Part shown: positions 10,957 through 49,605 of the stretch, piece after piece | Position numbering within the stretch: position 1 is the first letter of the stretch | Layout: the number at the start of each line of letters is the position of its first letter | Assembly (NCBI GenBank): GCA_013359265.1 | Contig: JABWCD010000012.1 | Location: forward strand, 8,458-72,457 | DNA from: Candidatus Hydrogenedentota bacterium | GTDB taxonomy: Bacteria; Hydrogenedentota; Hydrogenedentia; Hydrogenedentales; SLHB01 | Reading direction: 5' to 3' | DNA: 64,000 bases | The notes under the pieces: model-generated | The model's database searches: none | What the model was told of the DNA's origin: nothing | The model's input: the letters and a program-made list of their open reading frames with translations, nothing else | Program-made: the position numbers and the translations under genes

Positions 10957-10971
10957 ACCGTGCGCGCCGCG

Positions 10972-12480: not shown

Positions 12481-12852
12481 GGCGTACTTTCCGCGGCTGC
12501 ACGAAGAAATGGGTGGCGAGGAGCTGCGACGAACGCCGCCCACGGTCCACCCGGCGAGAATTGATAGTGCGGACCGTTCGTTTTCCGTCGCGTTTGTTCA
12601 TGGCCGTTCGAAGGTCGATGGTGCGGTCCGCAAAACGGCGCACAGACCGCGTGGCACCGATCCGCAAATTATAAAAATGGGACGGCACCCAGTCAAATTG
12701 AGGGCGTGCCAATCGACCCCCCTTACTCGCTCGTGCGAACCGCAGTACGTACGGGATGAACCGAACGCGCCTTCGAGCCGGCGCACGGATTCACCGGGCG
12801 CGTGGCCTTCGACGGCGGCGCCGAGTTTCGTATAGAATTGCGCGCAGCACAA

Positions 12853-16566: not shown

Positions 16567-16717
16567 CCTGGCAGCCGGGCCGAGCGGGTAAAGGCAGAAG
16601 TAACGCCCCGAAAAGCGTGGACGAGCACGGTATTCGTTGCGACGCCGAACAGGATGGTGCGTGGCTCCTCATCGGCCAAGCCGGACAAATCTGGGCCGTG
16701 TCCCCATTGCATATGGT

Positions 16718-16768
16718 TTGACTTGTATAATCCCCCGCGCGACGGATTGCAGCGTGATCCGTCGCGCG
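16718..16768 (+). promoter_or_regulatory. Extended -10-like element (TGTATAAT) followed by a perfect 11-bp 5'-leader hairpin
   Basis: TGTATAAT lies at 16724..16731. The stem CGCGCGACGGA/TCCGTCGCGCG (16736-16746 and 16758-16768) lies about 25 nt upstream of the aldehyde dehydrogenase ATG. Confidence 0.35.
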
Positions 16769-16793
16769 GTCCAATTTCGGAAGGACGAATCGT

Positions 16794-18188: not shown

Positions 18189-18221
18189 TACGAAGCAATC
18201 TGACGCCGGCGAAACTATAGG

Positions 18222-28077: not shown

Positions 28078-28189
28078 CGCGGAGTTCCGTCGCGCGTTCC
28101 TCCCTCCCATCGCGATTACCCGTACAGCGGGCCATCGGTCCCTGCAAAAGGGGCCGCCGATACGAAGCGGTCCCCGCGGGAAGCGCCGG

Positions 28190-30136: not shown

Positions 30137-30502
30137 CCGGCGCGTTCCTCGACTTCAATCGCGAAACGCTAGCCTAGTCGCTTTGCATCCGCAACACAAT
30201 TTCACGCGACGTCGCTGTAGTGGTACATGACCGATTACGTTACCCGCCCCGCCGTCGAGGTTGGACCCGGCCCGAGGCCGCGGATTTCGCGTCGCCGGCG
30301 TACGCATACCGATGCCGCGCGTGGGGCGCTTCGAGGTACGTGTTCAACGTTGCTCGCGGCCCCTTTTGATTATCTTTTCTCGCTTTCAACATACTCGTTC
30401 CTCTCGTTTCTGCGGCTTGCGCTAACATGGACATCCATCGGTCCTGTTGGCCCGCTCCGTTTCGCACGGTACGTCGAGAGGCAAAACACACGAAGGAACA
30501 GT

Positions 30503-32914
30503 GTGCCGATATCGAAGGGAACAATAGGCGACTCGGCCGCATCGAGTTCACCGCTTTTACCGCTGTTTCGTCTGGTCACCGCGTATCCCAAAGTCGCCTT
30601 GCTCCTGTGGGGTTTGTCGCTCATCGGCTTCGCGCTGCAAATCCCGGGAATCGAGCGGGAGTCCGGGGCTGACGCATACATTCCCTCGGACCATCCCGCC
30701 GTTACGTTTTGGCACGAAACCAATGAGCGGTTCGACCTGTACGAACCGCTGGTCGTATTGATTGATACGAAGCAGCCTTTCGGAATTTTCAACCCGCAGA
30801 CCTTATCGCTGATCGATTGGTACACGGAAGAACTTGCGGCCATCGACGGCATTCGACCAGGCGAAATCTCAAGCATCTTTACGGAGAAATCGATTCGCGG
30901 CACGGAAGACGGAATCGTCACGGAAGCGCTGGCGCCATCGATTCCGCAGACTGAGCAGGAGGTCGCAGGTTTTCGAGAACGGGTAATGGGTTTTCCCCTT
31001 CACCTGGGCTCCCTTGTTGCGCGAGACGGGAGCGCGGCCGTTGTTGCGGCCCGCCTCGTCGACGGAACGGATGGCGGCGACGTCTATCGGGCGGTGTTGG
31101 CACTGGAGGCGCGCGCGCCGATTCACGGGGAAACGATCCATGTGGCCGGGCAGCCGACTGCGTCAGACTATCTCGACGCGTATCTGAGCAAAGACTCGAC
31201 CCGAATGGCGATAGCAGTTGTCGTATTCATTGGGCCCGTGCTGCTCCTTTCGTATCGAACGATTCGTGGGCTGGTTCTGCCTGGGACATCCGCGCTTTTT
31301 GGCGCTGCTGTCGCTTTGGGAAGTATGTCCATACTGGGTGTGCCGTTCGTTGTTCTGACGAATGTACTACCGGCGAACATTATGGCCTTGGGGGTCGCAT
31401 ACGGAATTCACATCCTGCGCGAATACTACGAGCAAACCGCAATTGATCCCGTGGAGCGCAAACGCGAAACCGTCATCAACGTGATGATGACCATGCGGCG
31501 GCCGATTATCTACGCGACGTTAACCGACATCGTTGGCTTCCTGGCGGTAAGCGTCACGTCGTACATGCCACCCATGCAGATGATGGGGCGTTTTGCGGCG
31601 CTGGGAATTGTGGCGACGCTGGTTTCGACGTTGATTGCGATTCCCGCGGCGCTGGTATTGCTTCCGGTGCGGCCTAGTCCCGCGCTTTGTCCGAATGCGG
31701 ACGGTTCGCAGCGGCAGGACTTTTTCTCTCGAATCCTGGCGTCTGTCGGAAATAAAGTTGTCGCACACCCTCGGGCAATCGTTCTCATGTGCGCGGGCCT
31801 GACGGCTTGCGGCCTTTACGCGGCGAGCAAGGTCGAGGTCAACGACTCCCGCATCGGTCACTTCCGGTCAAGCGAACCCATTTACCAGGCGGCGGCGGCA
31901 TTTGACCGCGTCATGGACGGCACCCTGTATCTGGATGTCGTCATTGAGGCAGACGGGCCGGAAGCGCTGTACCGCCCGGAAAACCTGGCGCGAATCGAGA
32001 ATCTGCAGCGCTTTCTGGAGTCATTGCCGCACATCAAAGGCACCCTATCGATTGTGGACTATATGAAGCTGATGAATCGGGCGATGTCAGACGACGCACC
32101 CGGCGCCTTCATACTCCCCCCCACGGAGAATCTGGTCGCGCAGTATGCGCTGCTGTATTCGATGGGCGACACGACCGGGCTGGCGCACGTGGTTGATAGC
32201 GGCTATAAAACGACCGTCGTTCGCGCGTTGTGCAATAGTGGCCTTTTCAGCGACGCCCGCACGATCCGGCAGGAAACCGATCGGTACTTGATGGACGAGT
32301 TCGCCACGCCGGGAATATCGGCGCGGCTCTCGGGGCGCTTGAATGTCGACTTCGAGTGGATGCGCCACCTTGAAGCGAGCCATTTCATCGGCGCGCTGCT
32401 TGCCTTGCTGACGGTGTGGATAATGACTTCTGTTGGATTTCGAACGTGGGTGGCGGGCGTCTACTGCATCGTGCCGGTGATTACGACACTGGTGGCGGTT
32501 TATGCCGTCATGGGCATTTCGGGCATTTGGCTCGGATTGGGTACGTCTGCGTACGCATCTATCGCGATCGGGATAACGGTGAATTTCTCGATCCATGAAC
32601 TGGATCGCCTCGTGCATTTGGTTAAAGGACAGGGCATCGCACTCGATGCCGCGCTGCGGACAATGTTCGCTACCACGGGCAGGGCAGTATTCTTCAACTT
32701 CTTGAGCCTGATTCTGGGCATGGTGACACTAACCCTCAGCCAACTGCCGCCGCTCCAGTGGTTCGGTATCCTACTGTCGACGGCGCTGCTTGTTGGATTC
32801 GTGACGAGCCTCGTGTTGTTGCCCGCGCTCATCGCGATGTTTCGTCCGCGCTTTCTCGATCCGTCTCGGCGAGACAAAGGTGTAGTATCATTGCCATCAC
32901 AAGACCGGCAATAA
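30503..32914 (+). CDS. MMPL/RND-superfamily exporter (COG1033-like, 12 TM with two periplasmic loops)
   Basis: ORF 30227..32914. The first ~92 codons are Arg-rich and non-protein-like. GTG 30503, behind GAAGGAA, is the proposed start, but this is uncertain. Two blocks of six hydrophobic helices are separated by soluble domains. Confidence 0.8.
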   Translation: MPISKGTIGDSAASSSPLLPLFRLVTAYPKVALLLWGLSLIGFALQIPGIERESGADAYIPSDHPAVTFWHETNERFDLYEPLVVLIDTKQPFGIFNPQTLSLIDWYTEELAAIDGIRPGEISSIFTEKSIRGTEDGIVTEALAPSIPQTEQEVAGFRERVMGFPLHLGSLVARDGSAAVVAARLVDGTDGGDVYRAVLALEARAPIHGETIHVAGQPTASDYLDAYLSKDSTRMAIAVVVFIGPVLLLSYRTIRGLVLPGTSALFGAAVALGSMSILGVPFVVLTNVLPANIMALGVAYGIHILREYYEQTAIDPVERKRETVINVMMTMRRPIIYATLTDIVGFLAVSVTSYMPPMQMMGRFAALGIVATLVSTLIAIPAALVLLPVRPSPALCPNADGSQRQDFFSRILASVGNKVVAHPRAIVLMCAGLTACGLYAASKVEVNDSRIGHFRSSEPIYQAAAAFDRVMDGTLYLDVVIEADGPEALYRPENLARIENLQRFLESLPHIKGTLSIVDYMKLMNRAMSDDAPGAFILPPTENLVAQYALLYSMGDTTGLAHVVDSGYKTTVVRALCNSGLFSDARTIRQETDRYLMDEFATPGISARLSGRLNVDFEWMRHLEASHFIGALLALLTVWIMTSVGFRTWVAGVYCIVPVITTLVAVYAVMGISGIWLGLGTSAYASIAIGITVNFSIHELDRLVHLVKGQGIALDAALRTMFATTGRAVFFNFLSLILGMVTLTLSQLPPLQWFGILLSTALLVGFVTSLVLLPALIAMFRPRFLDPSRRDKGVVSLPSQDRQ

Positions 32915-32924
32915 CGGAGTCAAT

Positions 32925-33767
32925 ATGTTCAGGCGACTTTCCAGTGCGTTGGCCGCGGCCGTGGCTTTGCACGTTGCGAGCATGGGCATTGTTTGCGGGG
33001 CGAGCGGCGAGGAATTCCCGAGCGCCGAAGACATCATCACGCGTGCGAATGCGCGCGATACCAGTACGGATGTGCTGCAAACGATCCAGATGAAACTGAT
33101 CGAAAAGGACGGATCAGTTCGCGAACGGTTAACGCGCGGCGTCGGTAAGTCTTTTGACGATGGCCGCCGGTTCGCCCTGTTCTTCTTGGAGCCGTCCAAC
33201 GTGCGCGGAACCGCGCTGCTGACCTTCGATTATGACGATGCTGCAAAGAGCGACGATCAATGGCTGTATCTGCCCGCCATGCGGAAGACGCGCCGTATTT
33301 CCGGAGGCGAGCGGGGCAGTTCGTTTCTCGGAACGGACTTTACGTTCGAGGACATCAAGAACCAGTCGCGTGGATCGTTGCTGGACCGCACGTGGAAGAC
33401 CGTCGGAGAAGAAGATGTGGACGGTCATTCGTGTTACGCCATCGAGGGGATTCCCACGACTCCGGCGATTGCAAAGGAACTGGGGTATTCGAAGCTGAAG
33501 ACATTTATCGACAAGGAACTGTCGATTATGCGTCGAACCGATTTTTGGGACCCGTCCGGCGCGATGTTCAAGACGATCTCGATTCGGGACTACGAACAAA
33601 TCGACGGAGTTTGGACCGCGCGTACGATGGAGGCAAAAAACCTCAAGACCGGACACGCGACCGTGTTCACGATAACCGAAGTGCGCTACAACCTGGGGCT
33701 TCCCGACGACGTATTCTCGGCCCAGACGCTGGAACGGGGGCTGCCCAATTCCATCCTGAAGCCATAA
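32925..33767 (+). CDS. LolA-like outer-membrane lipoprotein-sorting family protein
   Basis: 280 aa with a signal peptide. The motif run DDQWLYLPAMRKTRRISGGERGSSFLGTDFTFEDI is typical of the LolA_like family that accompanies COG1033 exporters. It starts 10 nt after the exporter. Confidence 0.75.
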   Translation: MFRRLSSALAAAVALHVASMGIVCGASGEEFPSAEDIITRANARDTSTDVLQTIQMKLIEKDGSVRERLTRGVGKSFDDGRRFALFFLEPSNVRGTALLTFDYDDAAKSDDQWLYLPAMRKTRRISGGERGSSFLGTDFTFEDIKNQSRGSLLDRTWKTVGEEDVDGHSCYAIEGIPTTPAIAKELGYSKLKTFIDKELSIMRRTDFWDPSGAMFKTISIRDYEQIDGVWTARTMEAKNLKTGHATVFTITEVRYNLGLPDDVFSAQTLERGLPNSILKP

Positions 33768-33791
33768 CCAATCGTTGGGAGGCGAGTCGAC

Positions 33792-35180
33792 GTGCGGTCC
33801 GAGGTTGGACAGCCCAGTGGCCCGAGCGCGGTATTCTCGTCGTGCGCCGTGGCAGTCTTCTTCATTGCCGGCGCCTTCGCACAATCGAGCGATGTGCAGG
33901 CAGGCGGGCCGGAATCGCAGTGGCGCGGCCTTCCCGAAACCAGCGGCACGATCTCGTTGGAGAGCGCCTACGGCACGGCTGAAAACACGCTGCAAAAGCT
34001 CTGTCTTGAGCTGGTTCTTCGGCTGACCGGCGCAATCTCCCATACTACGGACTACACGGTGATAGGAAGACTGCGCGCCGATCCTGTGTTCGATAACGGC
34101 CATTTGGATGGAACCGATTTCCCAGACGTGTCCGAGGCAACGCGCCCGCTCCGGATCGGTGAGACCGCGGAACTCGAACTGCGGGAAGCGTACATTCGCA
34201 CAACCTGGAACGACTGGCATCTCACGCTCGGCAAGCAGCAGATCGTCTGGGGCTTGGCGGATGGTTTGAAAGTGATCGATGTCGTGAATCCGCAGGACCT
34301 GCGCGAGTTCATCTTGACGGACTTCGAAAATTCGCGGCTGCCGCTATGGGCGGTCAATGCCGAACGCCCGATTGGGGACTGGAACTTACAGGTCGTCTGG
34401 GTCCCCGACCCCTCGTACTACATACTTCCCCGGCAAGAATCGGAGTTCGAATTCAGCGCGGGCGTGCCCAGTGTTCCGCCCGGGTTCGCGCTTGAATACA
34501 AACCGGCGTCGCGCCCATCGGGCCTCGACGAAATTTCAGACGCGGGCTTTCGATTGTCAACTTTCAAAGCGGGCTGGGACCTCACGTTCAACTACTTGTA
34601 CCACTACGACGATGTGCCCGTATTTCCGCGCTCGCTTTGCCTTACCGACGACGGACCGACTGTAGTCGTTACGCCGGAGTACAGGCGGTCCCACCTGATA
34701 GGAGGAACCGCCAGCAAAGCCTTCGGCGATTTTACGCTGCGCGCGGAGTACGGGCTGTTTACGGACAAGTACTATCCGACAGGCAGTTTACTCGATGCTG
34801 ACGGCGTCGTGAAGGGGAACGACCTGTCCTACATGATTGGCGTCGATTGGTTCGGCATTAGCAATACCGTTGTCAGCTTTCAGCTATTCCAGGACTGGTT
34901 TACGAACGACTCGAGAGGCGTGGAACGCGACGAGATTCAGACCTATACAACCCTCGCGGTCCACCGGCGCCTGCTCAACGACACGTTGACGCTGCAATCG
35001 ATTTGGTTCCAGGACCTGAACCATGGCGACGGGCTCTTGCGCCCAAAAATCACGTACGCGGTCAACGATAGGGTGTCGGTGTACGCAGGAGCGGATTTCT
35101 TCTACGGATCCGCCAACGGCTTTTTTGGCCAATTCGATTCCAAGGACCGAATCTATTGCGGTCTGACCTGGAGTTTCTGA
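33792..35180 (+). CDS. Outer-membrane beta-barrel protein (DUF1302-like)
   Basis: GTG start behind GGGAGG, with a signal peptide. Aromatic residues alternate in a beta-strand pattern. The C-terminus is ...YCGLTWSF, with the terminal Phe typical of OMPs. Confidence 0.6.
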   Translation: MRSEVGQPSGPSAVFSSCAVAVFFIAGAFAQSSDVQAGGPESQWRGLPETSGTISLESAYGTAENTLQKLCLELVLRLTGAISHTTDYTVIGRLRADPVFDNGHLDGTDFPDVSEATRPLRIGETAELELREAYIRTTWNDWHLTLGKQQIVWGLADGLKVIDVVNPQDLREFILTDFENSRLPLWAVNAERPIGDWNLQVVWVPDPSYYILPRQESEFEFSAGVPSVPPGFALEYKPASRPSGLDEISDAGFRLSTFKAGWDLTFNYLYHYDDVPVFPRSLCLTDDGPTVVVTPEYRRSHLIGGTASKAFGDFTLRAEYGLFTDKYYPTGSLLDADGVVKGNDLSYMIGVDWFGISNTVVSFQLFQDWFTNDSRGVERDEIQTYTTLAVHRRLLNDTLTLQSIWFQDLNHGDGLLRPKITYAVNDRVSVYAGADFFYGSANGFFGQFDSKDRIYCGLTWSF

Positions 35181-35571
35181 CGCCGTTCCGTCACGTCGTC
35201 CCGGCCTGGGTCTACAGGTCCGTGGCGGGAAGCACCAAGCCAATTAGGAACAGAACAATGTACACCAGGATCGTAAGGGTTATGTCGCCCTCATAATAGC
35301 TCAAGACCTGCTGTATGATCGCCAGAAAATCAATCATCGCCTTACTCCCGTCGTCGGCGTACGGACCGCGCATTCGCTGCAATTTACTCCCGTGCATTCG
35401 GGCCAATGCACCGGCGGCGCTCAGCATACCAGTCTAACTCCCCACAGATATACTCGCGGCGGCAGGCACGGCACGAAAGGTTGTTTTGCCCGTTCGTGTT
35501 CCGTAAACTTCGCCGCACTTCCACCGGCTGCAAGTCTCCGGCGCATCGCCGGACGTGAAGGAGTTGACACG

Positions 35572-36978
35572 ATGAGCTCGACCGCGGCGGCGCCGAGAAG
35601 TCCCGCGGCGCCTCTCCGATTGCCGCGCGTCAGCCAGGCTGCTTTTCTCCGGCTATTCTTAAGTGGGTTGCGCGGCGATTTCGCGCCGTGGCGCGACGCT
35701 GTCCGGCGGTACCCGCAGGGAATCGAAACGCGCATCGTGCGGCAGCGGTGCATACTCATGAACGAGCCGGACGGGATCGAAGAGATTCTGGTGCGGAACC
35801 ACAAGTATTATCACCGCCGCACGCGGTCCACTCCCCTCAAAGTCTATACAGGCCAAAGCGTGCTCACACTCAGCGGCGACGCCCACCTGCGGCAACGCCG
35901 CCTCATACAGCCCGCGTTCCACAAGAGCCGAATCGACGCGTACGGCGACGCCATGGCTGCCATTGGCGAGGGATTCGCGTCACGCTGGCGTGACGGCATC
36001 ATGGTTGACATCCACCAGGAAATGATGGAGGTCACCGCAGCAATCATTACGAAGACGATGTTCAGCTCGGATATCGAAGAGGATGTGCGAATCGTGGGAC
36101 ACGCCATCGATTTCCTGCTATCCCACGCCGGGCGATATGTGATACCGATGCTGGGAAACGTACTTGATCGGATGCCGTTGAAGAGCACGCGGCGCATCAA
36201 GGAGTCGCTCGCGCAACTGGATTCCGTTATTTATCGCATTATTCGGGACCACCGCGCAGCGGGCGACGCGTCCGATGACGTCCTGTCTATGCTCATGGCG
36301 GCACAGTACGACGACGGCAGCACGATGACCGATCGACAACTTCGCGACGAATCCATGACGCTCTTCCTCGCGGGCCACGAAACGATATCGAACGCATTGA
36401 GCTGGACGTTCTACTTGTTGTCGCGGCATCCGGAGATTGCGGAGAGACTCCGGGAAGAAGTCGACTCGGTGCTCGATAATGGGCGCACGCCCAACGTGGA
36501 TGACATCCCGCGGCTCGACTACGTCCGCCGGGTATTGACCGAGAGCATGCGGCTGTACCCACCCGTACCGGGCGTCGACCGGGAGGCCGTAGCGTCAAAC
36601 GAGATTCTGGGAATCGACATCAATGCCGGAGATTTGTTGCTTATATCCCCATTGATTACCCACTACGACCCGCGTTGGTATCCGGAGCCGGAGCGTTTCG
36701 ATCCGGATAGGTGGCTTCCCGAGCGCGCGGAAAGTGTGCCAAGGTATGCATACCTGCCATTTGGCGGAGGGGCGCGCAGATGCATAGGTGAGCGATTTGC
36801 CTGGATGGAAGGCATACTGCTGCTGGCGATTTTCTCGCGTGACTGGCACTTTGAACTGGCGCCGGACGCACGGGTTCGGACGCAATTGAATATCACCCTC
36901 CGCCCGATTCACGGCGTGCAAATGGTTCTGCGGGGCCGGCGGAACGGGGAACGGCGCCGTATCCGCGGGCATACGTAA
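35572..36978 (+). CDS. Cytochrome P450
   Basis: ATG 35572 behind GAAGGAG. It has ExxR (ESMR) and the haem-thiolate loop FGGGARRCIGERFA. Confidence 0.9.
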   Translation: MSSTAAAPRSPAAPLRLPRVSQAAFLRLFLSGLRGDFAPWRDAVRRYPQGIETRIVRQRCILMNEPDGIEEILVRNHKYYHRRTRSTPLKVYTGQSVLTLSGDAHLRQRRLIQPAFHKSRIDAYGDAMAAIGEGFASRWRDGIMVDIHQEMMEVTAAIITKTMFSSDIEEDVRIVGHAIDFLLSHAGRYVIPMLGNVLDRMPLKSTRRIKESLAQLDSVIYRIIRDHRAAGDASDDVLSMLMAAQYDDGSTMTDRQLRDESMTLFLAGHETISNALSWTFYLLSRHPEIAERLREEVDSVLDNGRTPNVDDIPRLDYVRRVLTESMRLYPPVPGVDREAVASNEILGIDINAGDLLLISPLITHYDPRWYPEPERFDPDRWLPERAESVPRYAYLPFGGGARRCIGERFAWMEGILLLAIFSRDWHFELAPDARVRTQLNITLRPIHGVQMVLRGRRNGERRRIRGHT

Positions 36979-36997
36979 GCCGGCGCGTACGTTTTTC

Positions 36998-38167
36998 ATG
37001 CTCTGGGGTTACCTCATATTCTTCCGGCTCGTTACGCTGACCATCTTTCGCAGCAGGGGCACTTTTGCGCGGTGTACCCCGAAGCGATTCTTGGTGATGA
37101 GCATCTTTGTGCCGGTGCTCTTCTTCGGCGAACTCCTTCATTGGATCGGGTTTCTGCTCGACGACCTGTTTTTTCGCGGATACCGAAAAGTCGCCATCAA
37201 AGACCCGGTGTTTATCGTCGGAATTCCGCGAAGCGGGACAACGCTCCTGCACCGTGTTATGGCGCAAGATTCCGAGCGTTTCACCTCATTCAAATTGTGG
37301 GAGCTTCTCCTCGCGCCGTCGATCACGGAGCGGAAGCTGTGGACACTCGTGGGTTCGATCGATCGGGCCTGTGGCGGCGCGGGCCGCAGCCTGATCGCCG
37401 CGATTGACCGCAGAATCTTCGGCCGCCTCAGTGAAATCCACAAGATGACCCTCTTCGATTACGACGAAGACGAGCTGGTATTGGGCCCGATCTTTTCGAC
37501 GGTGTATCTGCTTTTCCCCTTTCCATTCTACGAGGAGACCTGGAGGCTTGTCCGGTTCGACGAAGGGATTCCCCCGGCCGAGCAAGACTGGATCATGCGG
37601 TTCTACAAGGCCTGCGTTCAGCGCCACCTGTACTTCCACGGGGCGGAGAAACAGTTCTTGTCGAAGAACCCCTCATTCTCCGCAAAGGTCGACGCTATAC
37701 GGGCGCATTTTTCTGGCGCAAGAATGATATGCAACATGCGCAGCCCCTACGATACGGTCCCATCGCTGTTAAGCGCGTTGTATGTGGCGTGGGACATGTT
37801 CGACAACGATCCGCAGGGCGATATCTTTCGCGATAGGGTGCTGGAATTGGCCGACTACTGGTATCGCCATCCTATGAATTGCGCGCGCGAATGGGCACAA
37901 GACCGGTTTGTCTTCCTCTCGTATGACGATCTACGTCGCGACCTGAAGTCCGCCGTGGCGGACGTGTACACCAAACTTGCTATCGAACCTGGGCCGCAGT
38001 TCGCGGAGCGCCTGAGCGCCGAGCACGAAAAAGCGAAGTCGTACAAGAGTAATCACCGGTACTCGCTGGAACAGTACGGATTGTCGGCGAGCGATGTTCT
38101 TGACAAGTTTGGTTACGTTTTCGAGCGATTTGGATTCGCCGCCGAGCACACTGCGGACGACGAGTGA
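36998..38167 (+). CDS. Membrane-anchored PAPS-dependent sulfotransferase
   Basis: 389 aa with N-terminal hydrophobic segments. The 5'-PSB loop is VGIPRSGTTLLHRVM. A later MRSPYDTVPS region is consistent with a 3'-PB motif. It starts 19 nt after the P450 gene. Confidence 0.8.
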   Translation: MLWGYLIFFRLVTLTIFRSRGTFARCTPKRFLVMSIFVPVLFFGELLHWIGFLLDDLFFRGYRKVAIKDPVFIVGIPRSGTTLLHRVMAQDSERFTSFKLWELLLAPSITERKLWTLVGSIDRACGGAGRSLIAAIDRRIFGRLSEIHKMTLFDYDEDELVLGPIFSTVYLLFPFPFYEETWRLVRFDEGIPPAEQDWIMRFYKACVQRHLYFHGAEKQFLSKNPSFSAKVDAIRAHFSGARMICNMRSPYDTVPSLLSALYVAWDMFDNDPQGDIFRDRVLELADYWYRHPMNCAREWAQDRFVFLSYDDLRRDLKSAVADVYTKLAIEPGPQFAERLSAEHEKAKSYKSNHRYSLEQYGLSASDVLDKFGYVFERFGFAAEHTADDE

Positions 38168-38187
38168 GGCGGGCGTATTCGTTCCCC

Positions 38188-39057
38188 TCAGGCGCCCATC
38201 CGAAGCATTAGGTTGATAACCCAATCCGCGAGCCGATCGGGCGCGTGCCTGCGAAGCGGCGCCCAGAATCGCACGTCGCGTCCCACTTTGTAGCGCGTTT
38301 TTGGACGCCGCGCCGTCAGGGCGTGAGCGACGGCCCGGGCGACCCGCTGCGGCGAGGTGCAGGTGCGTGCGAACTCTTCCGCCTTCTTCCGGGCTAAGGT
38401 CATGGACGCGGCGTACAAGGCATGGACCTCATCTTCGCGCGTCTGCATCTTTTCCATGGCGACGAATGACTTGCCCCAGATAGTTGTCGCCATGCGGCCG
38501 GGTTCGATCAGGGAGACCTCGATCTCCCAGGGCGCAAGTTCGACACGCAGCGCGTCCGCGAGCGCTTCGAGCGCGAACTTCGACGCGGCGTATACACCCA
38601 CGAACGGACAGGAGAGCAATCCAAAAATTGACCCCATGATGACAATGCGGCCGCGCGCCTGACGGACAAGCGGAAGAAAAGCCTGTGTAACGGCCAACTG
38701 ACCGACGACGTTGACGTCGAACTGTTCGCGAATGTCGCTGGCCGTGAGGGTTTCGATCGGGCCGACTACGGCAATTCCCGCATTGTTCACCAAGCCGTAG
38801 AGGCCGGATTCGCCAACTTCAATCCGGACTTCTGCGACTGCTGCCGCAATCGTGTCGCTTTTCGTTACGTCTACGATCACGGGGCGAATCCCCGGCGCTT
38901 CGGCAACGAGGCCAGCTCCATCCGCGTCCTTCCGGACACCGGCAAACACCGCAAATCCCAGCCGGTCGAGATGGAGTGCGCACGCTTTTCCAATTCCGGA
39001 CGACGCGCCGGTCACGAAGACCGCCCGCTTGACGGCGGAATTGCGAATCGAAACCAT
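38188..39057 (-). CDS. Short-chain dehydrogenase/reductase (classical SDR)
   Basis: ATG 39057. It has the TGASSGIGKA cofactor motif and the YAASK catalytic YxxxK. Confidence 0.88.
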   Translation of the reverse strand: MVSIRNSAVKRAVFVTGASSGIGKACALHLDRLGFAVFAGVRKDADGAGLVAEAPGIRPVIVDVTKSDTIAAAVAEVRIEVGESGLYGLVNNAGIAVVGPIETLTASDIREQFDVNVVGQLAVTQAFLPLVRQARGRIVIMGSIFGLLSCPFVGVYAASKFALEALADALRVELAPWEIEVSLIEPGRMATTIWGKSFVAMEKMQTREDEVHALYAASMTLARKKAEEFARTCTSPQRVARAVAHALTARRPKTRYKVGRDVRFWAPLRRHAPDRLADWVINLMLRMGA

Positions 39058-39482
39058 TTGGCCACACCTGCCTTCGATATCACCCCGCGTCGAACCCATC
39101 CAAGCCCGCCTTGTGGACGAATGGACGCGCGGCGACGGTGGGGAATCCTCAGAGTTCAGCCGTTATTCTTTTCAAGAAGGGTGGATGATATCGGCAGACC
39201 CGAGTTGAATCAACGCACCCAACCGGACGCGCACCCAACCGGACGGGCGCGCGAAGGCCCTTGCGTTGAATCGGGACGACAGTTTCCACCGGCCGGTCCA
39301 CGTACCCGTATTGCGGCTTTCGTATGAAGCTGGGTATACTCAATCGGGTGATCTCTCTTGCAAGGGTTGGCTGCAAGCTTTCTTTTGTAACCATATGACA
39401 GCCGAATGTTTTAGGGGCGCTGTTCAGCAGAGCGACGGCAGGACGCTGCCGCTCGGCGCAGGGCACCTGTAGGACCTGACGC

Positions 39483-42400
39483 ATGGACAATCTTGTTGAT
39501 TGCATGGACTACTGGACACGCGCGCAACCTGACGAGATTCTGTACAGCTTTACGGACGAAAGAGGAGCCGTTCGAGAACAATACACATACAGCCAGTTCT
39601 GTGAGCGCACGCTGGGTTTGGCGCATCAATTGTTCGAGGCGGCCGGAATCCAGACCGGCGACCGTGTTCTGCTCGTGTATCCGCCGGGGCTGGAAATGAT
39701 GGCCGGGTTCTTCGCGTCGGTAAACTTGGGCGCGATTCCGGTTCCCGTCTGTGCCCCACTCTCGATGGCCACCGGCGCGGGGGCGGATCGAATTGAGCAT
39801 ATCGCGCAGGACTGCGAGGCTCGCGTCGCACTCACCACGGCGGCCTACTTGCGCGGGACGGTCAACGCGCCCGCGGCGAAACGCCGCGAACCTCACAACT
39901 CGTCGCAGCTTAACCGCATTCACTGGGTAGCGACGGACGCCTTCCCGGAGAACGGCCGGCATACGCTTCGGCGTCAGACCAACCCCGTCTTGTTTCTGCA
40001 ATATACGTCCGGGTCGACGGGTGACCCTAAAGGCGTCATAGTCACACACCGGAACGTGATGCACAATGCGGACGAAACCATACAACGGCATTCCGTCGGC
40101 GTATCCTGGCTCCCCCAATATCACGACATGGGGCTGATCGGCCACTATTTGTTCGCGGTGGTAATGGGGGGAACGAACCACGGCTTTTCGCCATTCGACT
40201 TTCTGAAGCGGCCCGCGCTGTGGCTACAAACCATTTCTCGCGTGAGGGCGACGCTGACCACCGCGCCGAACTTTGCCTACGGCTACTGCCTGCGCGAGGA
40301 CAAGGTCCCGGACTCCGCGCTGAGCGGGGTTGACTTAAGTTCGCTGAGAGGAATGCTGAACGCCGCGGAGCCAATCCACCCGCAAACGTACGCGGACTTC
40401 TACGAGCGCTTCGCGAAATACGGCCTCCAGCGCGAATCGTACTATACCGGTTATGGACTCGCCGAAAACACCCTGACGGTCTCCCTTCGCGGACGGCAAA
40501 CCTTGACCGTTCACAAGGAGCGGTTGCAGCGCCGCCAGTTGAGCATCCAAAAGACAACGGCACGCAACAATAACCAAACGACGCTGGTTAGTTGCGGCCG
40601 GCCGTTCACGAGTCTCGACGTCCGCATTGTAGACCCGGAGTCCCACGTCGCGTTGCGCGAAGACGCGATTGGCGAAATCTGGGTCGACGGCGCGAGCAAG
40701 TGCGCGGGCTATTGGCAGCGGCCCGAATTGACGCAAGCCGTGTTCAACGCACGCATCGAGGGCGAACCGGATCGTTCGCGAACGTATCTGCGCACGGGCG
40801 ATCTGGGCTTCATCCACGAAGGCGAACTGTTCATCTGCGGCCGGCTCAAAGACATGATTATTATCCACGGGACGAACTACTACCCTCAGGACATCGAAGC
40901 GATTGTCGAAGCTGAATTTCCGGACGTCGGAATGATCGGGCAGGGGCGAACCGCGGCCATTGGGGTAGACTATGATGGCGAGGAACGCCTCGTGGTGCTC
41001 GTGGAGGTGCGGCGGCAACAGGAACTGCTTGACCCCGCCCGCGTGGCGCAGGCGATACGGGCTCGTTACTTTATCGATCCATATCAGGTACTTCTTGTTC
41101 CGCCGCGTTCAATTTCCAAGACCACGTCCGGCAAGGTGGCCCGGAGCAAAACCCGGGAGCGTTGGCTGGCGGGCGAGCTGGAAATACTCGCATCGTATGT
41201 CCACACGGATGTTAGCGATCGAAGCGCCCCACAGGGACTGAGGCAGTATATCGAGCGCATTCGCGACCGATATCACCTGAATGGTAACGAGAACGTGACC
41301 TTGTCAAGCATTGGCCTTGACTCCTTGACCTTTGTCGATCTGACACTCGAGATTCAGCGCCACTTCGAAGCTCGCGGATTGGAGCACGTCGTGTCCGAAC
41401 TGGACACACGATTCCTGCAGCGCCTTACTATCGCCGAACTGTCCCAACTCTTGGACATGTACCACGCTGGCCATGACATGCCCGCCTCCGAATTGCGCAC
41501 ATGGCTCGAGCGCCGGCAATTCGCAGACAACGAAACCGAACGAGAGTTGATGCGTGCCGACGCGCAGTGGCATCCTCCCGCGGAACCGGCCAAGGAATTG
41601 CGGGCCACGCCCGAATCGATTCTCATGACCGGCGCCACCGGATTTTTCGGGCCGTTTTTGCTTGCGAGTCTCCTGGAACATTCCGCCTGCGCGATCGATG
41701 TCCTGGTGCGCGCAGCCGATCCGGCCCACGGGCGAGCGCGGGTGGTCGACGCATTGCGCCGGACCGAAGTCTGGCGTCCGGAGATCGAAAGTCAGTTTCG
41801 GGAGCGGGTCCGTGTTGTGTGCGGCGACCTCGGATCGATCCGTTTGGGCCTGAACGACCACGAGTGGGATCGCCTGTGCGGCGAATGCGACGCAGTAGTC
41901 CACAACGGTGCGCAGGTGAACTACGTCCTCAGTTACGACGCGTTGCGCCCGCATAACATCGGCGGAACGCGCGAACTCATGCGGATGGCTGCCACGAAGA
42001 GGCAGAAGACTTTCCATCATATTTCGAGCACGTTCATCCACGGATGGTCGGCCCGCCCGGTCGCGGCGGAGCACGAATACAACGAGGACCTCGAGGATCT
42101 GGATTTTGGCTATTCGCAGTCGAAATGCATTCAGGAGCATCTCGTGCTCAACGCCGCGCGGCACGGTCAGCCTGTCCGAATCTACAGGCCGACTTTGATC
42201 ACCGCTTCATCGCGGGGCGTCGGAAGCAAGGACGATATCGGGGTCCGGCTTTTGGCCTTTATGATCAAGTATGGAATCGCGGTCGAGGCGCTTAACCAGG
42301 TCAGCTTTCTTCCGGCCGATCTTGTCTCGGACCATATCGCGCGGATATTCACGCTGCGGAACACTACGTCGAACATTCTTCACGTCACGACGACACGGTA

Positions 42401-42722
42401 CTACAACCTGATGGACGTAACGGAGAGCATCGCCGAGCAGTTCGGCTATTCGTTCACCTACTATGACACGCCGCGCTTTATCGAGGAAGTGAACCGCCTG
42501 TGTACGCCCGACGATTTGCTATACCCATTGCTTGTCTTTATCAATCGTTCCCATGACAAATTCAAGCCGATGGAACCCAAGCGTTACGACAACCGGCACT
42601 ACCGCGCAGCGCTCGAGCAGGTCAATCCGGACATCGTCGAGCCGGAACTGGCCGATACTGTCGCATACATCGTCAGGCACTTGCAGTGCGAGGGATTGGT
42701 CCCGATGCCCTGCCTGGTGTAA
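39483..42722 (+). CDS. Fatty acyl-AMP ligase - acyl carrier protein - terminal thioester reductase (FAAL-ACP-R) tridomain enzyme
   Basis: 1079 aa. The AMP-binding core is LQYTSGSTGDPKGV. The carrier Ser is in SSIGLDSLTFVDL. The reductase has the Rossmann motif ILMTGATGFFG and YSQSK (YxxxK). No KS, AT or C domains were seen. Confidence 0.9.
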   Translation: MDNLVDCMDYWTRAQPDEILYSFTDERGAVREQYTYSQFCERTLGLAHQLFEAAGIQTGDRVLLVYPPGLEMMAGFFASVNLGAIPVPVCAPLSMATGAGADRIEHIAQDCEARVALTTAAYLRGTVNAPAAKRREPHNSSQLNRIHWVATDAFPENGRHTLRRQTNPVLFLQYTSGSTGDPKGVIVTHRNVMHNADETIQRHSVGVSWLPQYHDMGLIGHYLFAVVMGGTNHGFSPFDFLKRPALWLQTISRVRATLTTAPNFAYGYCLREDKVPDSALSGVDLSSLRGMLNAAEPIHPQTYADFYERFAKYGLQRESYYTGYGLAENTLTVSLRGRQTLTVHKERLQRRQLSIQKTTARNNNQTTLVSCGRPFTSLDVRIVDPESHVALREDAIGEIWVDGASKCAGYWQRPELTQAVFNARIEGEPDRSRTYLRTGDLGFIHEGELFICGRLKDMIIIHGTNYYPQDIEAIVEAEFPDVGMIGQGRTAAIGVDYDGEERLVVLVEVRRQQELLDPARVAQAIRARYFIDPYQVLLVPPRSISKTTSGKVARSKTRERWLAGELEILASYVHTDVSDRSAPQGLRQYIERIRDRYHLNGNENVTLSSIGLDSLTFVDLTLEIQRHFEARGLEHVVSELDTRFLQRLTIAELSQLLDMYHAGHDMPASELRTWLERRQFADNETERELMRADAQWHPPAEPAKELRATPESILMTGATGFFGPFLLASLLEHSACAIDVLVRAADPAHGRARVVDALRRTEVWRPEIESQFRERVRVVCGDLGSIRLGLNDHEWDRLCGECDAVVHNGAQVNYVLSYDALRPHNIGGTRELMRMAATKRQKTFHHISSTFIHGWSARPVAAEHEYNEDLEDLDFGYSQSKCIQEHLVLNAARHGQPVRIYRPTLITASSRGVGSKDDIGVRLLAFMIKYGIAVEALNQVSFLPADLVSDHIARIFTLRNTTSNILHVTTTRYYNLMDVTESIAEQFGYSFTYYDTPRFIEEVNRLCTPDDLLYPLLVFINRSHDKFKPMEPKRYDNRHYRAALEQVNPDIVEPELADTVAYIVRHLQCEGLVPMPCLV

Positions 42723-42794: not shown

Positions 42795-44213
42795 ATGTCG
42801 ATGATGTCCATGCGTATGATCGCTGCCCTCGTCTCGCTGCCGTTTCTGTTCGGAATCGCCATGCTCGGGTGCAAGCCGCACCACGCGACCTTCGAGCGCA
42901 TCAGCGAGAACGGATTCGACGCCGAGGACAACGAACGCGATTGGAACGACTATCCTCAATCCACGCTGTTCTTCACGCCGGACGGTGCAAAAGACGGACA
43001 TCTCTATGTGGGCACCTCGTGCGGCATTAACGAACTCATCGCCGCGGCGGGCGGACTGTTGGGGGAGGACACCGGGGAGCGCCCTCCAGAAATTCGGCGC
43101 TACCGTCCGGACTTGGGGCCGATGGCGTGGGAGCGGGTCCTTGACTACCGGGATTTCGAGGATGGTCCGAATTTCACCGCCACCGGTTTTCGCAAAATGG
43201 CCCAGTATCGTAGCGAGTCGGACGGGGTGAAACGCCTCTACGCCGCGACTTTTGGGGCCGAGCCGACGATATGGCGCACCGAAACCGGCGAACCCGGTAG
43301 TTGGGAGCGGTTCTATTCAATAACGGATGCGCGGGGGTCCATTCGAGGAATGGCCGAACATAACGGCCTGCTCTATTTGGCGGTCGCAAACGACGCCACC
43401 GCGGGCGGCGCTGTTCTGACCGAACCCGGCCGCGTCCTGGCAACGGACGGCGAAACCGTATGGCCGGTGATCGAGGATGGTTTTGGTAATCCGGACAACG
43501 GCGCTGTCATGTCCCTGATTTCCTATGGTGACTGGTTGTATGCCGGGACGGCGAACAACAAGACCGGGTTCGAGATATGGAAGCTCGAGGGACCCGGCAA
43601 GCAGGGGCCCGTCAAGATTGTGTCGGACGGCGGCACCGATCCGCGCAACCAGTGCGCGATTACGCCGTACGTTTACAGGGGCGACCTGTACTGGGGCTCC
43701 ATGATCTTCATGGGTATGTACGTCAAGGGGTGCGTGCTGTTGCGCATCAACACGAATGACACGTGGGACGTCATCGTGGGACCGGGCGGACTTTCCGGGT
43801 TTGACGCAGGCTTCAACAACCGCAATAACGCCTACCTGTGGAGCCTCGTCGAACACAATGGCTGGCTCTACGCGGGCACCGCCGATTTCACGAGTGTCCT
43901 GCAGGGAGTCGTCGACAATTTGGACGATTTCTTCGCTCTTGCCGTGCGCCGGCTCGGCGAACGCGCGGCGCAGGAACTTCTCGACGCCAAACGCGGCCCA
44001 GGCCTTGTCGGCGTCGTTACTCAAGGAGGCGCAGACCTCTGGAGATCCCAGGACGGTGTGCATTGGACGCCGGTCTTCCGCAACGGACTCGGCGACACGT
44101 ACAACTTCGGCGTTCGCACCCTGACCTCGGTCGATGGCGTGCTCTATCTGGGTATGGCCAATCTTTGGGACGGGCTCGAGATGTGGCGTACAGCCAACCC
44201 CGACTCCAACTAA
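42795..44213 (+). CDS. Beta-propeller-like lipoprotein, hypothetical
   Basis: ATG 42795, signal peptide with an LGC lipobox. The blade signature (LYVGTS, LYAATF, LYLAVAN, LYAGTAN, LYAGTADF, LYLGMAN) recurs. Confidence 0.65.
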   Translation: MSMMSMRMIAALVSLPFLFGIAMLGCKPHHATFERISENGFDAEDNERDWNDYPQSTLFFTPDGAKDGHLYVGTSCGINELIAAAGGLLGEDTGERPPEIRRYRPDLGPMAWERVLDYRDFEDGPNFTATGFRKMAQYRSESDGVKRLYAATFGAEPTIWRTETGEPGSWERFYSITDARGSIRGMAEHNGLLYLAVANDATAGGAVLTEPGRVLATDGETVWPVIEDGFGNPDNGAVMSLISYGDWLYAGTANNKTGFEIWKLEGPGKQGPVKIVSDGGTDPRNQCAITPYVYRGDLYWGSMIFMGMYVKGCVLLRINTNDTWDVIVGPGGLSGFDAGFNNRNNAYLWSLVEHNGWLYAGTADFTSVLQGVVDNLDDFFALAVRRLGERAAQELLDAKRGPGLVGVVTQGGADLWRSQDGVHWTPVFRNGLGDTYNFGVRTLTSVDGVLYLGMANLWDGLEMWRTANPDSN

Positions 44214-49576: not shown

Positions 49577-49605
49577 AATATCCACCTCTCGCTTTGTGTC
49601 CTCGG

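Follow-up and report, generated by a model that had tools for sequence, protein, structure and literature searches.

A candidate locus for the biosynthesis and export of a sulfated long-chain aliphatic lipid in Candidatus Hydrogenedentota

The locus described here may direct the synthesis and export of a long-chain aliphatic lipid that carries sulfate, whether as an alkyl sulfate or as a hydroxyalkyl or alkanediol (di)sulfate; we assign this sequence-based reading a probability of about 0.5. It lies in a 64,000-nucleotide stretch of a Candidatus Hydrogenedentota contig (JABWCD010000012.1), referred to as the window. An earlier inspection of the DNA without database searches (the sequence-only reading) had picked out four genes at 35572-42722, encoding a cytochrome P450, a sulfotransferase (ST), a short-chain dehydrogenase/reductase (SDR), and a 1079-residue protein comprising a fatty acyl-AMP ligase (FAAL), a carrier, and a reductase (R). 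All four open reading frames are present at these positions and their translations contain the motifs quoted for them; Pfam, NCBIfam, and structure searches likewise bear out the FAAL, R, P450, sulfotransferase, and SDR assignments. The 19-nt spacing between the P450 stop and the sulfotransferase start and the divergent orientation of the SDR and FAAL genes are also as that reading had described; 383 nt separate the latter two genes. The conserved module extends beyond this interval to include a propeller lipoprotein and a 41-residue membrane peptide, and at this locus the RND/LolA-like/DUF1302 exporter genes (30227-35180) are part of it. Its features are as follows.

30227..32914, plus strand: RND-superfamily inner-membrane transporter (MMPL/HAE3 type), 895 aa, proposed lipid exporter (Pfam MMPL, Patched SSD)
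32925..33767, plus strand: periplasmic LolA-like/DUF1329-related protein with signal peptide, 280 aa (PF17131 LolA_like, 189.5 bits; DUF1329, 50 bits)
33792..35180, plus strand: DUF1302-family protein with signal peptide, 462 aa (PF06980, 39.4 bits)
35212..35337, minus strand: 41-aa hydrophobic peptide, small ORF divergent from the P450 gene (tblastn)
35572..36978, plus strand: cytochrome P450, 468 aa, proposed chain hydroxylase (PF00067, 268 bits)
36998..38167, plus strand: PAPS-type sulfotransferase with hydrophobic N-terminus, 389 aa (PF13469)
38188..39099, minus strand: classical SDR, 303 aa, proposed fatty aldehyde/alcohol oxidoreductase (adh_short, 146 bits)
39483..42722, plus strand: FAAL-carrier-thioester reductase, 1079 aa (Pfam, NCBIfam, motifs, PDB matches)
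42795..44213, plus strand: exported beta-propeller lipoprotein, 472 aa from ATG, with signal peptide and lipobox-like LGC (AF2 model)

The 1079-residue FAAL-carrier-reductase (FAAL-ACP-R) is composed of a FAAL (residues ∼1-575), a carrier (∼585-665), and an R domain (∼710-1050). Its Pfam scan (AMP-binding PF00501, 212 bits; AMP-dom_DIP2-like; NAD_binding_4 PF07993, 188 bits) contains no KS, AT, or C domain, as had been claimed, and the motifs quoted for its three parts are found in the translation (LQYTSGSTGDPKGV at 172, GLDSLT at 611, MTGATGFFG at 715, and YSQSK at 877). The adenylation half carries the core motifs of ANL enzymes, with YTSGSTGDPKG at 174 and the invariant G-Y-G-L-x-E, TGD, and K551 in the alignment. 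It scores 311-400 bits against the FAAL models in NCBIfam (PRK05850, 400) and lower against acyl-CoA ligase models, among which the PRK07768 subfamily reaches the highest value (287 bits) and the full-length match to PRK06187 gives 166 bits; every one of these scores falls short of the cutoff curated for its subfamily. The top PDB matches of this half are all FAALs (7r7e, 3kxw, FadD23 with an E value of 8e-78, FadD32, and FadD28), and the nearest of them, 7r7e, is a PKS loading domain deposited as ‘Polyketide synthase’. Alignment with E. coli FadD reveals an insertion of ∼23 residues, LQRRQLSIQKTTARNNNQTTLV, immediately ahead of the SCG-P strand. This insertion is common to the homologues from Terriglobus, Flavobacteriales, and Hydrogenedentes, and its position is presumably that of the FAAL-specific insertion of the N-terminal domain.

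When scanned alone, the carrier region matches PF00550 at 23.6 bits (gathering threshold 20.8) and contains GLDSL with Ser614; a scan of the whole protein at E 1e-3 gives no PF00550 match. The R domain scores 216.2 bits against the thioester reductase model TIGR01746 (cutoff 213.35) and has the characteristics of an extended SDR, namely a GATGFFG nucleotide loop at 717 and YSQSK as the YxxxK motif. It is closest in the PDB to MxaA (4u7w, E 2e-42), which we take to be alcohol-forming, and to the R domains of CARs. The protein thus resembles FadD9-type CARs and the terminal R domains of NRPS/PKS systems (MxaA, mycobacterial) in its A-T-R order and in the phosphopantetheine-dependent, NAD(P)H-driven reduction of an acid to an aldehyde or alcohol, but differs from CARs in having a FAAL-type adenylation half with the FAAL insertion. 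Identity as a CAR was rejected, as the equivalog model NF041592, whose cutoff is 1300 bits, scores 140.5 and matches the R-domain part alone. In ElbD, a FAAL or CoA ligase loads a carrier and reductive processing follows; the present protein is not of this myxobacterial ether-lipid type because it has no AGPAT domain. Homologues with 66-76% identity are found in Hydrogenedentes MAGs.

Pfam matches the sulfotransferase to Sulfotransfer_3 (PF13469, 75.7 bits, cutoff 27) and Sulfotransfer_1 (36 bits) and to no other family. The PRSGTT sequence of the 5'-PSB loop is at residue 77, and Arg78 and Gly80 within that loop, together with His148, His210, Lys223, Arg248, and Ser256, are invariant across the family; we infer that Arg248 and Ser256 form the 3'-PB site. 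The best PDB sequence matches are 2zq5 and 2z6v, and Foldseek aligns an AlphaFold2 model (pLDDT 91) with Stf1 (TM 0.69-0.73) and Stf9 (TM 0.69). Family, sequence, and structure matches together place the enzyme among sulfotransferases of the mycobacterial Stf1/Stf9/Stf3 kind (Sulfotransfer_3). It had been described as TM-anchored: one hydrophobic segment (residues 29-54) does rise above the Kyte-Doolittle threshold, AlphaFold2 places two helices at the N-terminus (2-17 and 28-58), and this region is conserved family-wide; membrane anchoring is a prediction from these features.

The sequence-only reading had compared the locus with that for mycobacterial sulfolipid-1 (SL-1), which includes FadD23, Pks2, PapA1/2, MmpL8, and Stf0. 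The analogy is weak. A FAAL, an MMPL-type RND transporter, and a sulfotransferase do occur in both, in SL-1 for an exported sulfated lipid, but the Stf0-type assignment is unsupported because Pfam gives the sulfotransferase only Sulfotransfer_3 and Sulfotransfer_1; Stf0 constitutes a separate, trehalose-specific family. Nor are there equivalents of Pks2 and PapA, with no PKS or PapA-type gene within 26-47 kb, and both acyltransferase and trehalose chemistry are absent here. Identity with the SL-1 locus was rejected on these grounds. With carrier and reductase on the same polypeptide as the FAAL, the chain would be released reductively instead of extended.

Sulfate esters can also serve as leaving groups, as in the olefin-forming ST-TE modules of CurM and Ols and in retinol dehydratase. 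If sulfation were similarly transient at this locus, enabling elimination, ether formation, or alkyl transfer, the mature product would be free of sulfate. The sulfotransferase domains of Ols and CurM rank third and fourth in the structure search, in which retinol dehydratase is also listed, and the nearest solved FAAL serves as the loading domain of a PKS. The cyanobacterial Ols/CurM systems combine loading by a FAAL with a sulfotransferase. We nonetheless regard a sulfate-free product as very unlikely, because the TM values to 4gox and 4gbm are only 0.35-0.53 as compared with ∼0.7 for Stf1 and Stf9, the core contains no thioesterase or other candidate for an elimination step, and the adjoining amphiphile exporters are better suited to a charged end product. 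A KS-AT-KR-ACP-ST-TE module of the Ols/CurM kind was itself rejected, given that the sulfotransferase here is a separate protein and KS, AT, KR, and TE are absent.

The P450 has a complete signature set, composed of the FGGGARRCIG Cys-ligand loop at 397, AGHET in the I-helix, and ESMR as the ExxR motif. Its closest solved relatives are spread over 7wzl, CYP170A1, CYP97, CYP51, CYP120, and CYP102, none of which is a CYP128, and its substrate therefore cannot be inferred from them. The SDR gene is convergent with that of the sulfotransferase, and the nearest solved relatives of its product, DHRS9 and 17beta-HSD1, are SDRs acting on lipophilic alcohols and ketones.

A pathway to the proposed sulfated lipid can be drawn from these domain families and from synteny. 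The FAAL would adenylate a free long-chain fatty acid and load it onto the phosphopantetheine at Ser614 of the in-cis carrier, which would need a PPTase encoded elsewhere. Using NAD(P)H, the thioester reductase would then release the chain from the carrier at the aldehyde stage or, by transferring a second hydride, at the alcohol stage, and the divergent SDR may complete or secure reduction to the primary alcohol. The P450, with redox partners encoded elsewhere, would place a second hydroxyl at the omega or an in-chain position, with the acid, its alcohol, or an already sulfated alkyl chain as substrate. The membrane-associated Stf-type sulfotransferase would act on the cytoplasmic side of the inner membrane and transfer sulfate from PAPS to the hydroxyl(s). 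The resulting anionic amphiphile would be carried to the outer membrane or the outside by the RND (MMPL/HAE3), LolA-like, and DUF1302 proteins, or in sister loci by a MacB-type ABC pump, with the propeller lipoprotein and the 41-residue peptide as possible accessories on the envelope side. Weighing against this scheme, the window ORFs that were scanned include no PAPS-synthesis genes and none encoding a PPTase, a ferredoxin, or a ferredoxin reductase. Literature searches returned no characterised pathway of such composition, in agreement with the sequence-only reading.

The core is conserved in the order P450-ST-(SDR)-FAAL_ACP_R-propeller in five further Hydrogenedentes-type loci (L001, L083, L086, L087, and L088), at 61-76% amino acid identity and with flanks that consist of the RND/LolA-like/DUF1302 set, a MacB-type ABC set, or neither; the co-occurrence expected from the sequence-only reading is thus observed. 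Orthologues of the P450 (71-75% identical) lie directly 5' of the sulfotransferase in all five and in L089. SDR orthologues (65-69%) occupy the same position in L001, L083, L086, L088, and the partial loci L090/L091 and are missing from L087, leaving the P450, the sulfotransferase, FAAL-ACP-R, and the propeller as the only components common to the window and all five. L090/L091 retain only ST-SDR-FAAL_ACP_R, and the lack of an upstream P450 in them ties the sulfotransferase to FAAL-ACP-R and not to the P450 alone. Relatives of the sulfotransferase with at least 58% identity are apparently located on the same contigs as FAAL-ACP-R relatives, and three sampled relatives at 42-53% identity reside in unrelated gene contexts.

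A diverged version of the FAAL-ACP-R, P450, and Sulfotransfer_3 triad also recurs outside the phylum, in Flavobacteriales loci L023, L064, and L066, where the order is PPTase-FAAL_ACP_R-P450 | Sulfotransfer_3 and the identity to the window proteins is 38-40% for FAAL_ACP_R, 27-28% for the P450, and 22% for the sulfotransferase (L066). It is possible to view the gene order as synteny inherited among close genomes, with no functional unit behind it; the full-block loci all derive from one clade of uncultured genomes, and L086 shares even the upstream AsnB and PP-loop genes with the window. Retention of the core next to an RND set, a MacB set, or neither, and the appearance of the triad in another phylum with parts merely 22-40% identical, render this view highly improbable. 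Counting against the proposed pathway, FAAL-ACP-R also occurs away from sulfotransferase genes: its Hydrogenedentes clade contains paralogues in L002, next to a different P450 and an aldehyde dehydrogenase, and in L003 that have no sulfotransferase nearby, and the usual partners in the wider family are a P450, an FA_desaturase-family protein, and MMPL, again with no sulfotransferase. Sulfation would therefore be an add-on to an underlying FAAL-ACP-R pathway.

The closest genetic precedent is the M. tuberculosis cyp128-stf3 operon rather than the SL-1 locus. In that operon, the P450 hydroxylates the lipid tail of menaquinone-9 and Stf3 then sulfates it to yield sulfomenaquinone S881 (PMC7404182). 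As at the present locus, a P450 gene adjoins that of a Stf-family PAPS sulfotransferase, and relatives of the latter here bear the Stf3 KO name: at 42-53% identity they are labelled by JGI as ‘omega-hydroxy-beta-dihydromenaquinone-9 sulfotransferase’, an automatic name, and NCBIfam has no Stf3 model. FAAL-ACP-R, the SDR, the propeller, and the exporter, on the other hand, are missing from the mycobacterial operon. These sulfomenaquinone-type names, the mycobacterial Stf1 and Stf9 as nearest structures, and the documented P450-then-sulfotransferase operon logic (PMC7404182) would fit a pair acting on menaquinone or another polyprenyl lipid, with FAAL-ACP-R belonging to a separate pathway. Such a division of the locus seems decidedly unlikely, as ST-SDR-FAAL_ACP_R stay together in L090/L091 in the absence of an upstream P450, the Flavobacteriales triad is built from unrelated versions of each part, the core remains intact while its flanks vary, and the JGI names are automatic labels.

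The sister loci also bear on what becomes of the aldehyde. L087 lacks the SDR and in its stead has a second P450, a methyltransferase of the PEMT family, and an enzyme with an aminotransferase fold (Aminotran_1_2), suggesting from gene content that the aldehyde may be open to other processing routes. Near the cores of L001, L083, and L088 lie genes for a methyltransferase, an alpha/beta hydrolase, and a fusion of an NAD_binding_4 reductase with LPG_synthase_C. Taken with a score of 170 bits for the SDR against the 3-ketodihydrosphingosine reductase (KdsR) model, these genes could indicate that the aldehyde is built into a larger lipid (for example an ester, an ether lipid, an amine, or a base of the sphingoid type) and that the P450 and sulfotransferase decorate this scaffold. 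We consider this unlikely for the locus in question: the additional enzymes are absent from the window, the shared components are limited to the four named above and in L090/L091 to ST, SDR, and FAAL-ACP-R, and the KdsR score is far under the cutoff of 400.

For the favoured product, a sulfated fatty alcohol or diol, the closest chemical precedents are eukaryotic. Entamoeba converts fatty acids into C16-20 fatty alcohol disulfates, for which it needs SULTs, an omega-hydroxylase, and a reductase that yields fatty alcohols; the reductase and hydroxylase are unidentified, and the genome encodes neither a P450 nor a fatty acyl-CoA reductase (PMC6801973). In the flagellar membrane of Ochromonas, the main polar lipid has 1,14-docosanediol disulfate as its parent compound (PMC5632803). 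The chemical logic of these systems, which include the chlorosulfolipids, is the same as that proposed here (acid to alcohol, second hydroxyl, PAPS-dependent sulfation). To our knowledge, the reductase and hydroxylase for the Ochromonas docosanediol disulfates are also still unknown. More tentatively, and with rather less than an even chance of being correct, the Hydrogenedentes module and the Flavobacteriales clusters, the latter assembled independently, may together represent a way of making alkyl-sulfate or alkanediol-disulfate envelope lipids that has gone unrecognised in bacteria. In that case they would provide the first genetic blueprint for this lipid class, in which carrier-bound reductive release is followed by P450 hydroxylation and the action of an Stf-type sulfotransferase, and would assign a cargo to the RND/LolA-like/DUF1302 (plus propeller) export system.

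In the window, and among the five further core loci in L001, L083, L086, and L088, the core is adjoined by an amphiphile or lipid exporter; no recognisable exporter was found upstream of the core in L087. The RND transporter has ∼12 hydrophobic segments and matches the NCBIfam models TIGR00921 (HAE3, 173 bits) and MMPL RND (141 bits), both under their cutoffs. It is syntenic in L086 (69% identity), as are the LolA-like protein (hydrophobic N-terminus, 79%) and the DUF1302 protein (76%), and is replaced by a MacB-type ABC transporter and MFP in L001, L083, and L088. The DUF1302 protein, from a family that we take to form outer-membrane barrels, probably serves the exporter at the outer membrane. 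In Pseudomonas, DUF1302, DUF1329, BNR-propeller, and RND genes exhibit cofitness, and a role in envelope-lipid export has been proposed for the set, as has an esterase function (bioRxiv 10.1101/2020.07.04.188060). The present locus encodes RND, LolA-like/DUF1329, and DUF1302 proteins and also a beta-propeller, but this propeller yields no Pfam match, BNR included, and none in NCBIfam, and may or may not be the counterpart of the one in Pseudomonas. The locus departs from the Pseudomonas arrangement in that the propeller gene still trails that of FAAL-ACP-R in loci with a MacB pump instead of the RND set.

Orthologues of the propeller (65-76% identical) are located 3' of FAAL-ACP-R in all five further core loci. 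Its family has ∼195 members, every one annotated ‘hypothetical’, and the AlphaFold2 model is all-beta (pLDDT 87), with Foldseek yielding only generic propellers at TM ∼0.5. At the other end of the core, tblastn finds counterparts of the 41-residue peptide in the corresponding place in L001, L083, and L088 (identity 66-72%, E ∼1e-11), with weaker matches in L090/L091, L087, and L086, and gene callers place minus-strand ORFs of 40-92 residues at this position in related loci.

The four genes that the sequence-only reading had assembled into a sulfated fatty-alcohol lipid pathway lie where it placed them, with each family confirmed by Pfam and all quoted motifs found in the translations. The sulfotransferase start follows the P450 stop after the reported 19 nt. 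The module extends beyond those four genes, taking in an exported lipoprotein directly 3' of the FAAL-ACP-R gene, a small hydrophobic ORF, and the RND, LolA-like and DUF1302 genes upstream of the P450.

Genes of the module and its upstream neighbors (window positions; strand where assigned).
26875-30136: 400-aa PP-loop/WbuX-like protein and AsnB-type glutamine amidotransferase (TIGR01536, 441 bits for AsnB)
30227-32914: RND transporter, MMPL/HAE3 type
32925-33767: LolA-like/DUF1329-related periplasmic protein
33792-35180: DUF1302 protein
35212-35337, minus: 41-aa hydrophobic small ORF MIDFLAIIQQVLSYYEGDITLTILVYIVLFLIGLVLPATDL, between the DUF1302 and P450 genes, divergent from the P450
35572-36978, plus: P450 (Pfam p450, 268 bits)
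36998-38167, plus: sulfotransferase (Pfam Sulfotransfer_3, 75.7 bits, plus Sulfotransfer_1)
38188-39099, minus: SDR (Pfam adh_short, 146 bits)
39483-42722, plus: FAAL-ACP-R, 1079 aa (Pfam AMP-binding, 212 bits; AMP-dom_DIP2-like; NAD_binding_4, 188 bits)
42795-44213: propeller lipoprotein, 472 aa (signal peptide; lipobox-like LGC)

The 1079-aa protein had been described as a fatty acyl-AMP ligase (FAAL), a carrier and a reductase only, and Pfam, NCBIfam and a separate scan of the carrier region bear this out; KS, AT and C domains are absent (Pfam). The adenylation half scores 311-400 bits against NCBIfam FAAL models versus at most 287 bits against acyl-CoA ligase models (166 bits for the full-length match to PRK06187), and alignment with E. 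coli FadD reveals a ~23-residue insertion where the FAAL-specific insertion falls. Its nearest FAAL in the PDB is 7r7e, an entry named 'Polyketide synthase'. The carrier region, scanned by itself, matches PF00550 at 23.6 (gathering score 20.8), and the protein passes the TIGR01746 thioester reductase model (216.2 against a cutoff of 213.35). Although the architecture resembles that of CARs, membership in this family was rejected because the NCBIfam CAR model scores 140 bits, far under its cutoff of 1300; the ElbD, Ols and CurM architectures were rejected because their defining domains are missing (Pfam). The closest homologues (66-76% identity) are in Candidatus Hydrogenedentes MAGs, and Logan assemblies of SRR10914234/5 contain the identical protein.

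Judged by its AlphaFold2 model (pLDDT 91), the sulfotransferase comes nearest to mycobacterial Stf1 (TM 0.69-0.73) and Stf9, with the sulfotransferase domains of Ols and CurM as more distant matches. Across 30 relatives, the PSB-loop residues Arg78 and Gly80, as well as Lys223, Arg248, Ser256, His148 and His210, are unchanged, and the N-terminal hydrophobic region is also kept. The nearest solved relatives of the SDR are DHRS9 and 17beta-HSD1, both dehydrogenases of lipophilic alcohols or ketones. The substrate of the P450 cannot be read from structures because its nearest solved relatives, of which 7wzl is the closest, fall in several families. A hydrocarbon-forming role, with CYP4G-like aldehyde decarbonylation, was considered and set aside, since the conserved sulfotransferase would then have no substrate.

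From the established chemistry of these enzyme families, the FAAL would adenylate a fatty acid and load it onto the carrier, and the reductase domain would free the acyl group as an aldehyde or alcohol, a reduction that the SDR plausibly completes. The P450 would add a hydroxyl, the Stf-type enzyme would carry out PAPS-dependent sulfation, and the adjacent exporter may carry the anionic amphiphile outward. Chain length, hydroxylation position and sulfate number are not set by the sequence. As far as computation reaches, the sulfated fatty-alcohol reading is supported as predicted chemistry.

If these genes form one pathway, they might be expected in relatives as a unit, and the proposal that they be sought together there was followed by tblastn of window proteins against fetched relative loci, combined with called genes. 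In three sister loci (L001, L083 and L088), the core of P450, sulfotransferase, SDR (minus strand), FAAL-ACP-R and propeller recurs at 63-76% identity, flanked upstream by a MacB-type ABC pump with an MFP and downstream by an alpha/beta hydrolase. A fourth, L086, has the same core within the window's entire ten-gene order, including the RND/LolA-like/DUF1302 set; it was also the single locus returned by a metagenome scan with the sulfotransferase as query. L087 is a variant without the SDR (P450, sulfotransferase, FAAL-ACP-R and propeller), and L090/L091 show a partial version (sulfotransferase, SDR and FAAL-ACP-R, where the upstream P450 is absent and the contig ends shortly after). Gene order and identity across these loci thus indicate that the core is retained as the flanks vary. 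The arrangement in L090/L091 suggests the primary alcohol itself as a sulfation site. The 41-aa ORF is found at the matching place in L001, L083 and L088 (66-72% identity), with weaker matches in L086, L087 and L090/L091. L086 keeps the PP-loop/WbuX-like and AsnB genes in synteny ahead of its RND gene (84% and 73% identity), and the other sister loci lack them.

The sister loci also carry genes of their own. L087 encodes at 15938-19100 a second P450 (41% identical to that of the window), a methyltransferase of the PEMT family and an enzyme of the Aminotran_1_2 fold, possibly an aminotransferase or else an alpha-oxoamine synthase. Other sister clusters are preceded by a 696-aa fusion (L083 265-2355, L088 202-2292, L001 1-141) in which a reductase of the NAD_binding_4/epimerase type is joined to LPG_synthase_C, the C-terminal domain of MprF; the MacB pump and a methyltransferase resembling UbiE are next to it. 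The pump, fusion, methyltransferase and alpha/beta hydrolase have no homologues in the window.

This neighborhood picture was built from single locus look-ups, which also sampled the constituent families elsewhere. Three sulfotransferase relatives at 42-53% identity (L084, L085 and L096) and two propeller paralogues at ~45% (L094 and L095) sit in unrelated contexts that gave no clue to function. The FAAL-ACP-R clade of Hydrogenedentes includes paralogues without a sulfotransferase (L002 and L003); at L002 10001-16528, the FAAL-ACP-R paralogue (70% identical) faces an aldehyde dehydrogenase and has an unrelated P450 (28% identical) after it. Because L002 and L083 belong to one genome, that genome holds at least two FAAL-ACP-R pathways.

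The propeller lipoprotein has no match in Pfam or NCBIfam. Its family of ~195 members, every one annotated 'hypothetical', comes mostly from Hydrogenedentes, Phycisphaerae and Desulfobacterota. The AlphaFold2 model (pLDDT 87) is a beta-propeller, for which Foldseek returned generic beta-propellers only and no functional lead. In L095 (8001-13858), the paralogue immediately precedes an exporter made up of MFP, ABC and ABC2-membrane genes, a hint of a general link between this family and envelope export. Together with the RND/LolA-like/DUF1302 set, the propeller resembles a Pseudomonas DUF1302/DUF1329/BNR/RND cofitness group (bioRxiv 10.1101/2020.07.04.188060), for which roles in envelope-lipid export or as an esterase have been proposed.

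Three-domain FAAL-ACP-R relatives number at least 597 in a species-level genome set. Among the best 80 genome loci, a P450 accompanies 62, a desaturase-family gene 64 and an MMPL gene 52. Terriglobales loci (L017, L019-L082) strongly conserve a P450 and FA_desaturase-family gene (both minus) divergent from FAAL-ACP-R (plus), with MMPL (plus) further along, as in L017 7072-16553, where a type III PKS is close by; this cluster is apparently uncharacterised. In Flavobacteriales MAGs (L066 709-9366, the nearly identical L064, and L023), a Sfp-type PPTase, FAAL-ACP-R and P450 are accompanied by a Sulfotransfer_3 gene, with FA_desaturase-family genes on both sides. Identities to the window are 38-40% for FAAL-ACP-R, 27-28% for the P450 and 22% for the sulfotransferase (L066), and the set is an independent version of the triad. 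Its recurrence with such highly diverged parts is the strongest argument for one shared pathway.

The closest genetic precedent is the cyp128-stf3 operon of M. tuberculosis, in which menaquinone-9 is hydroxylated by the P450 and then sulfated by Stf3 (PMC7404182). The likeness to the mycobacterial sulfolipid-1 locus drawn from sequence holds for the combination of FAAL, MMPL and sulfotransferase and is limited to it: unlike that locus, the region from 26 to 47 kb has no PKS or PapA-type acyltransferase gene, and the sulfotransferase has no Stf0-type family match. The closest chemical precedents are the C16-20 fatty alcohol disulfates of Entamoeba, whose alcohol-forming and omega-hydroxylating enzymes are still unidentified according to a review (PMC6801973), and the 1,14-docosanediol disulfate of Ochromonas, whose chlorinated derivative is danicalipin A (PMC5632803). 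The sequence-only reading had recognised no characterised pathway with these parts, and literature searches on FAAL/thioester reductase with sulfotransferase and P450, on the biosynthesis of bacterial alkyl sulfates and on Hydrogenedentes sulfotransferases found no such cluster described and no characterised pathway of this composition.

The cluster is a compact, conserved and directly testable candidate for the synthesis and export of a sulfated lipid of the fatty-alcohol or diol type in bacteria. The bacterial sulfated molecules identified so far are relatively few and mainly sulfated glycolipids (PMC6801973). A dedicated route to simple sulfated fatty alcohols or diols would extend these by a further class of anionic compounds, whether envelope lipids or biosurfactants. 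It would also provide a lipid biomarker that can be tested for a phylum still uncultured, offer candidate enzyme types for the missing reductase and hydroxylase steps of the eukaryotic disulfates, and assign a cargo to the RND/LolA-like/DUF1302 set and the uncharacterised propeller family. It further opens a way into the clusters of FAAL-ACP-R and P450 (with or without FA_desaturase and MMPL), uncharacterised but very widespread, that Acidobacteriota and Bacteroidota carry.

Among the window ORFs scanned, none encodes PAPS synthesis, a PPTase or a P450 redox partner. Rfam returned only tRNA-Ala across the whole window and no riboswitch in the 383 nt between the SDR and FAAL genes, and a promoter/terminator scan of 30-45.2 kb was uninformative, giving fewer sites than shuffled sequence. 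ORFs of 820 aa (48203-50665, minus) and 534 aa (10960-12564) lack a Pfam match. The 1012-aa product of 484-3522 has a cytochrome c domain and HEAT repeats besides DUF7133 (398 bits). At 52819-56307, 8.6 kb downstream of the cluster, is the gene for a putative intermembrane lipid transporter of the YhdP/AsmA family (1162 aa).
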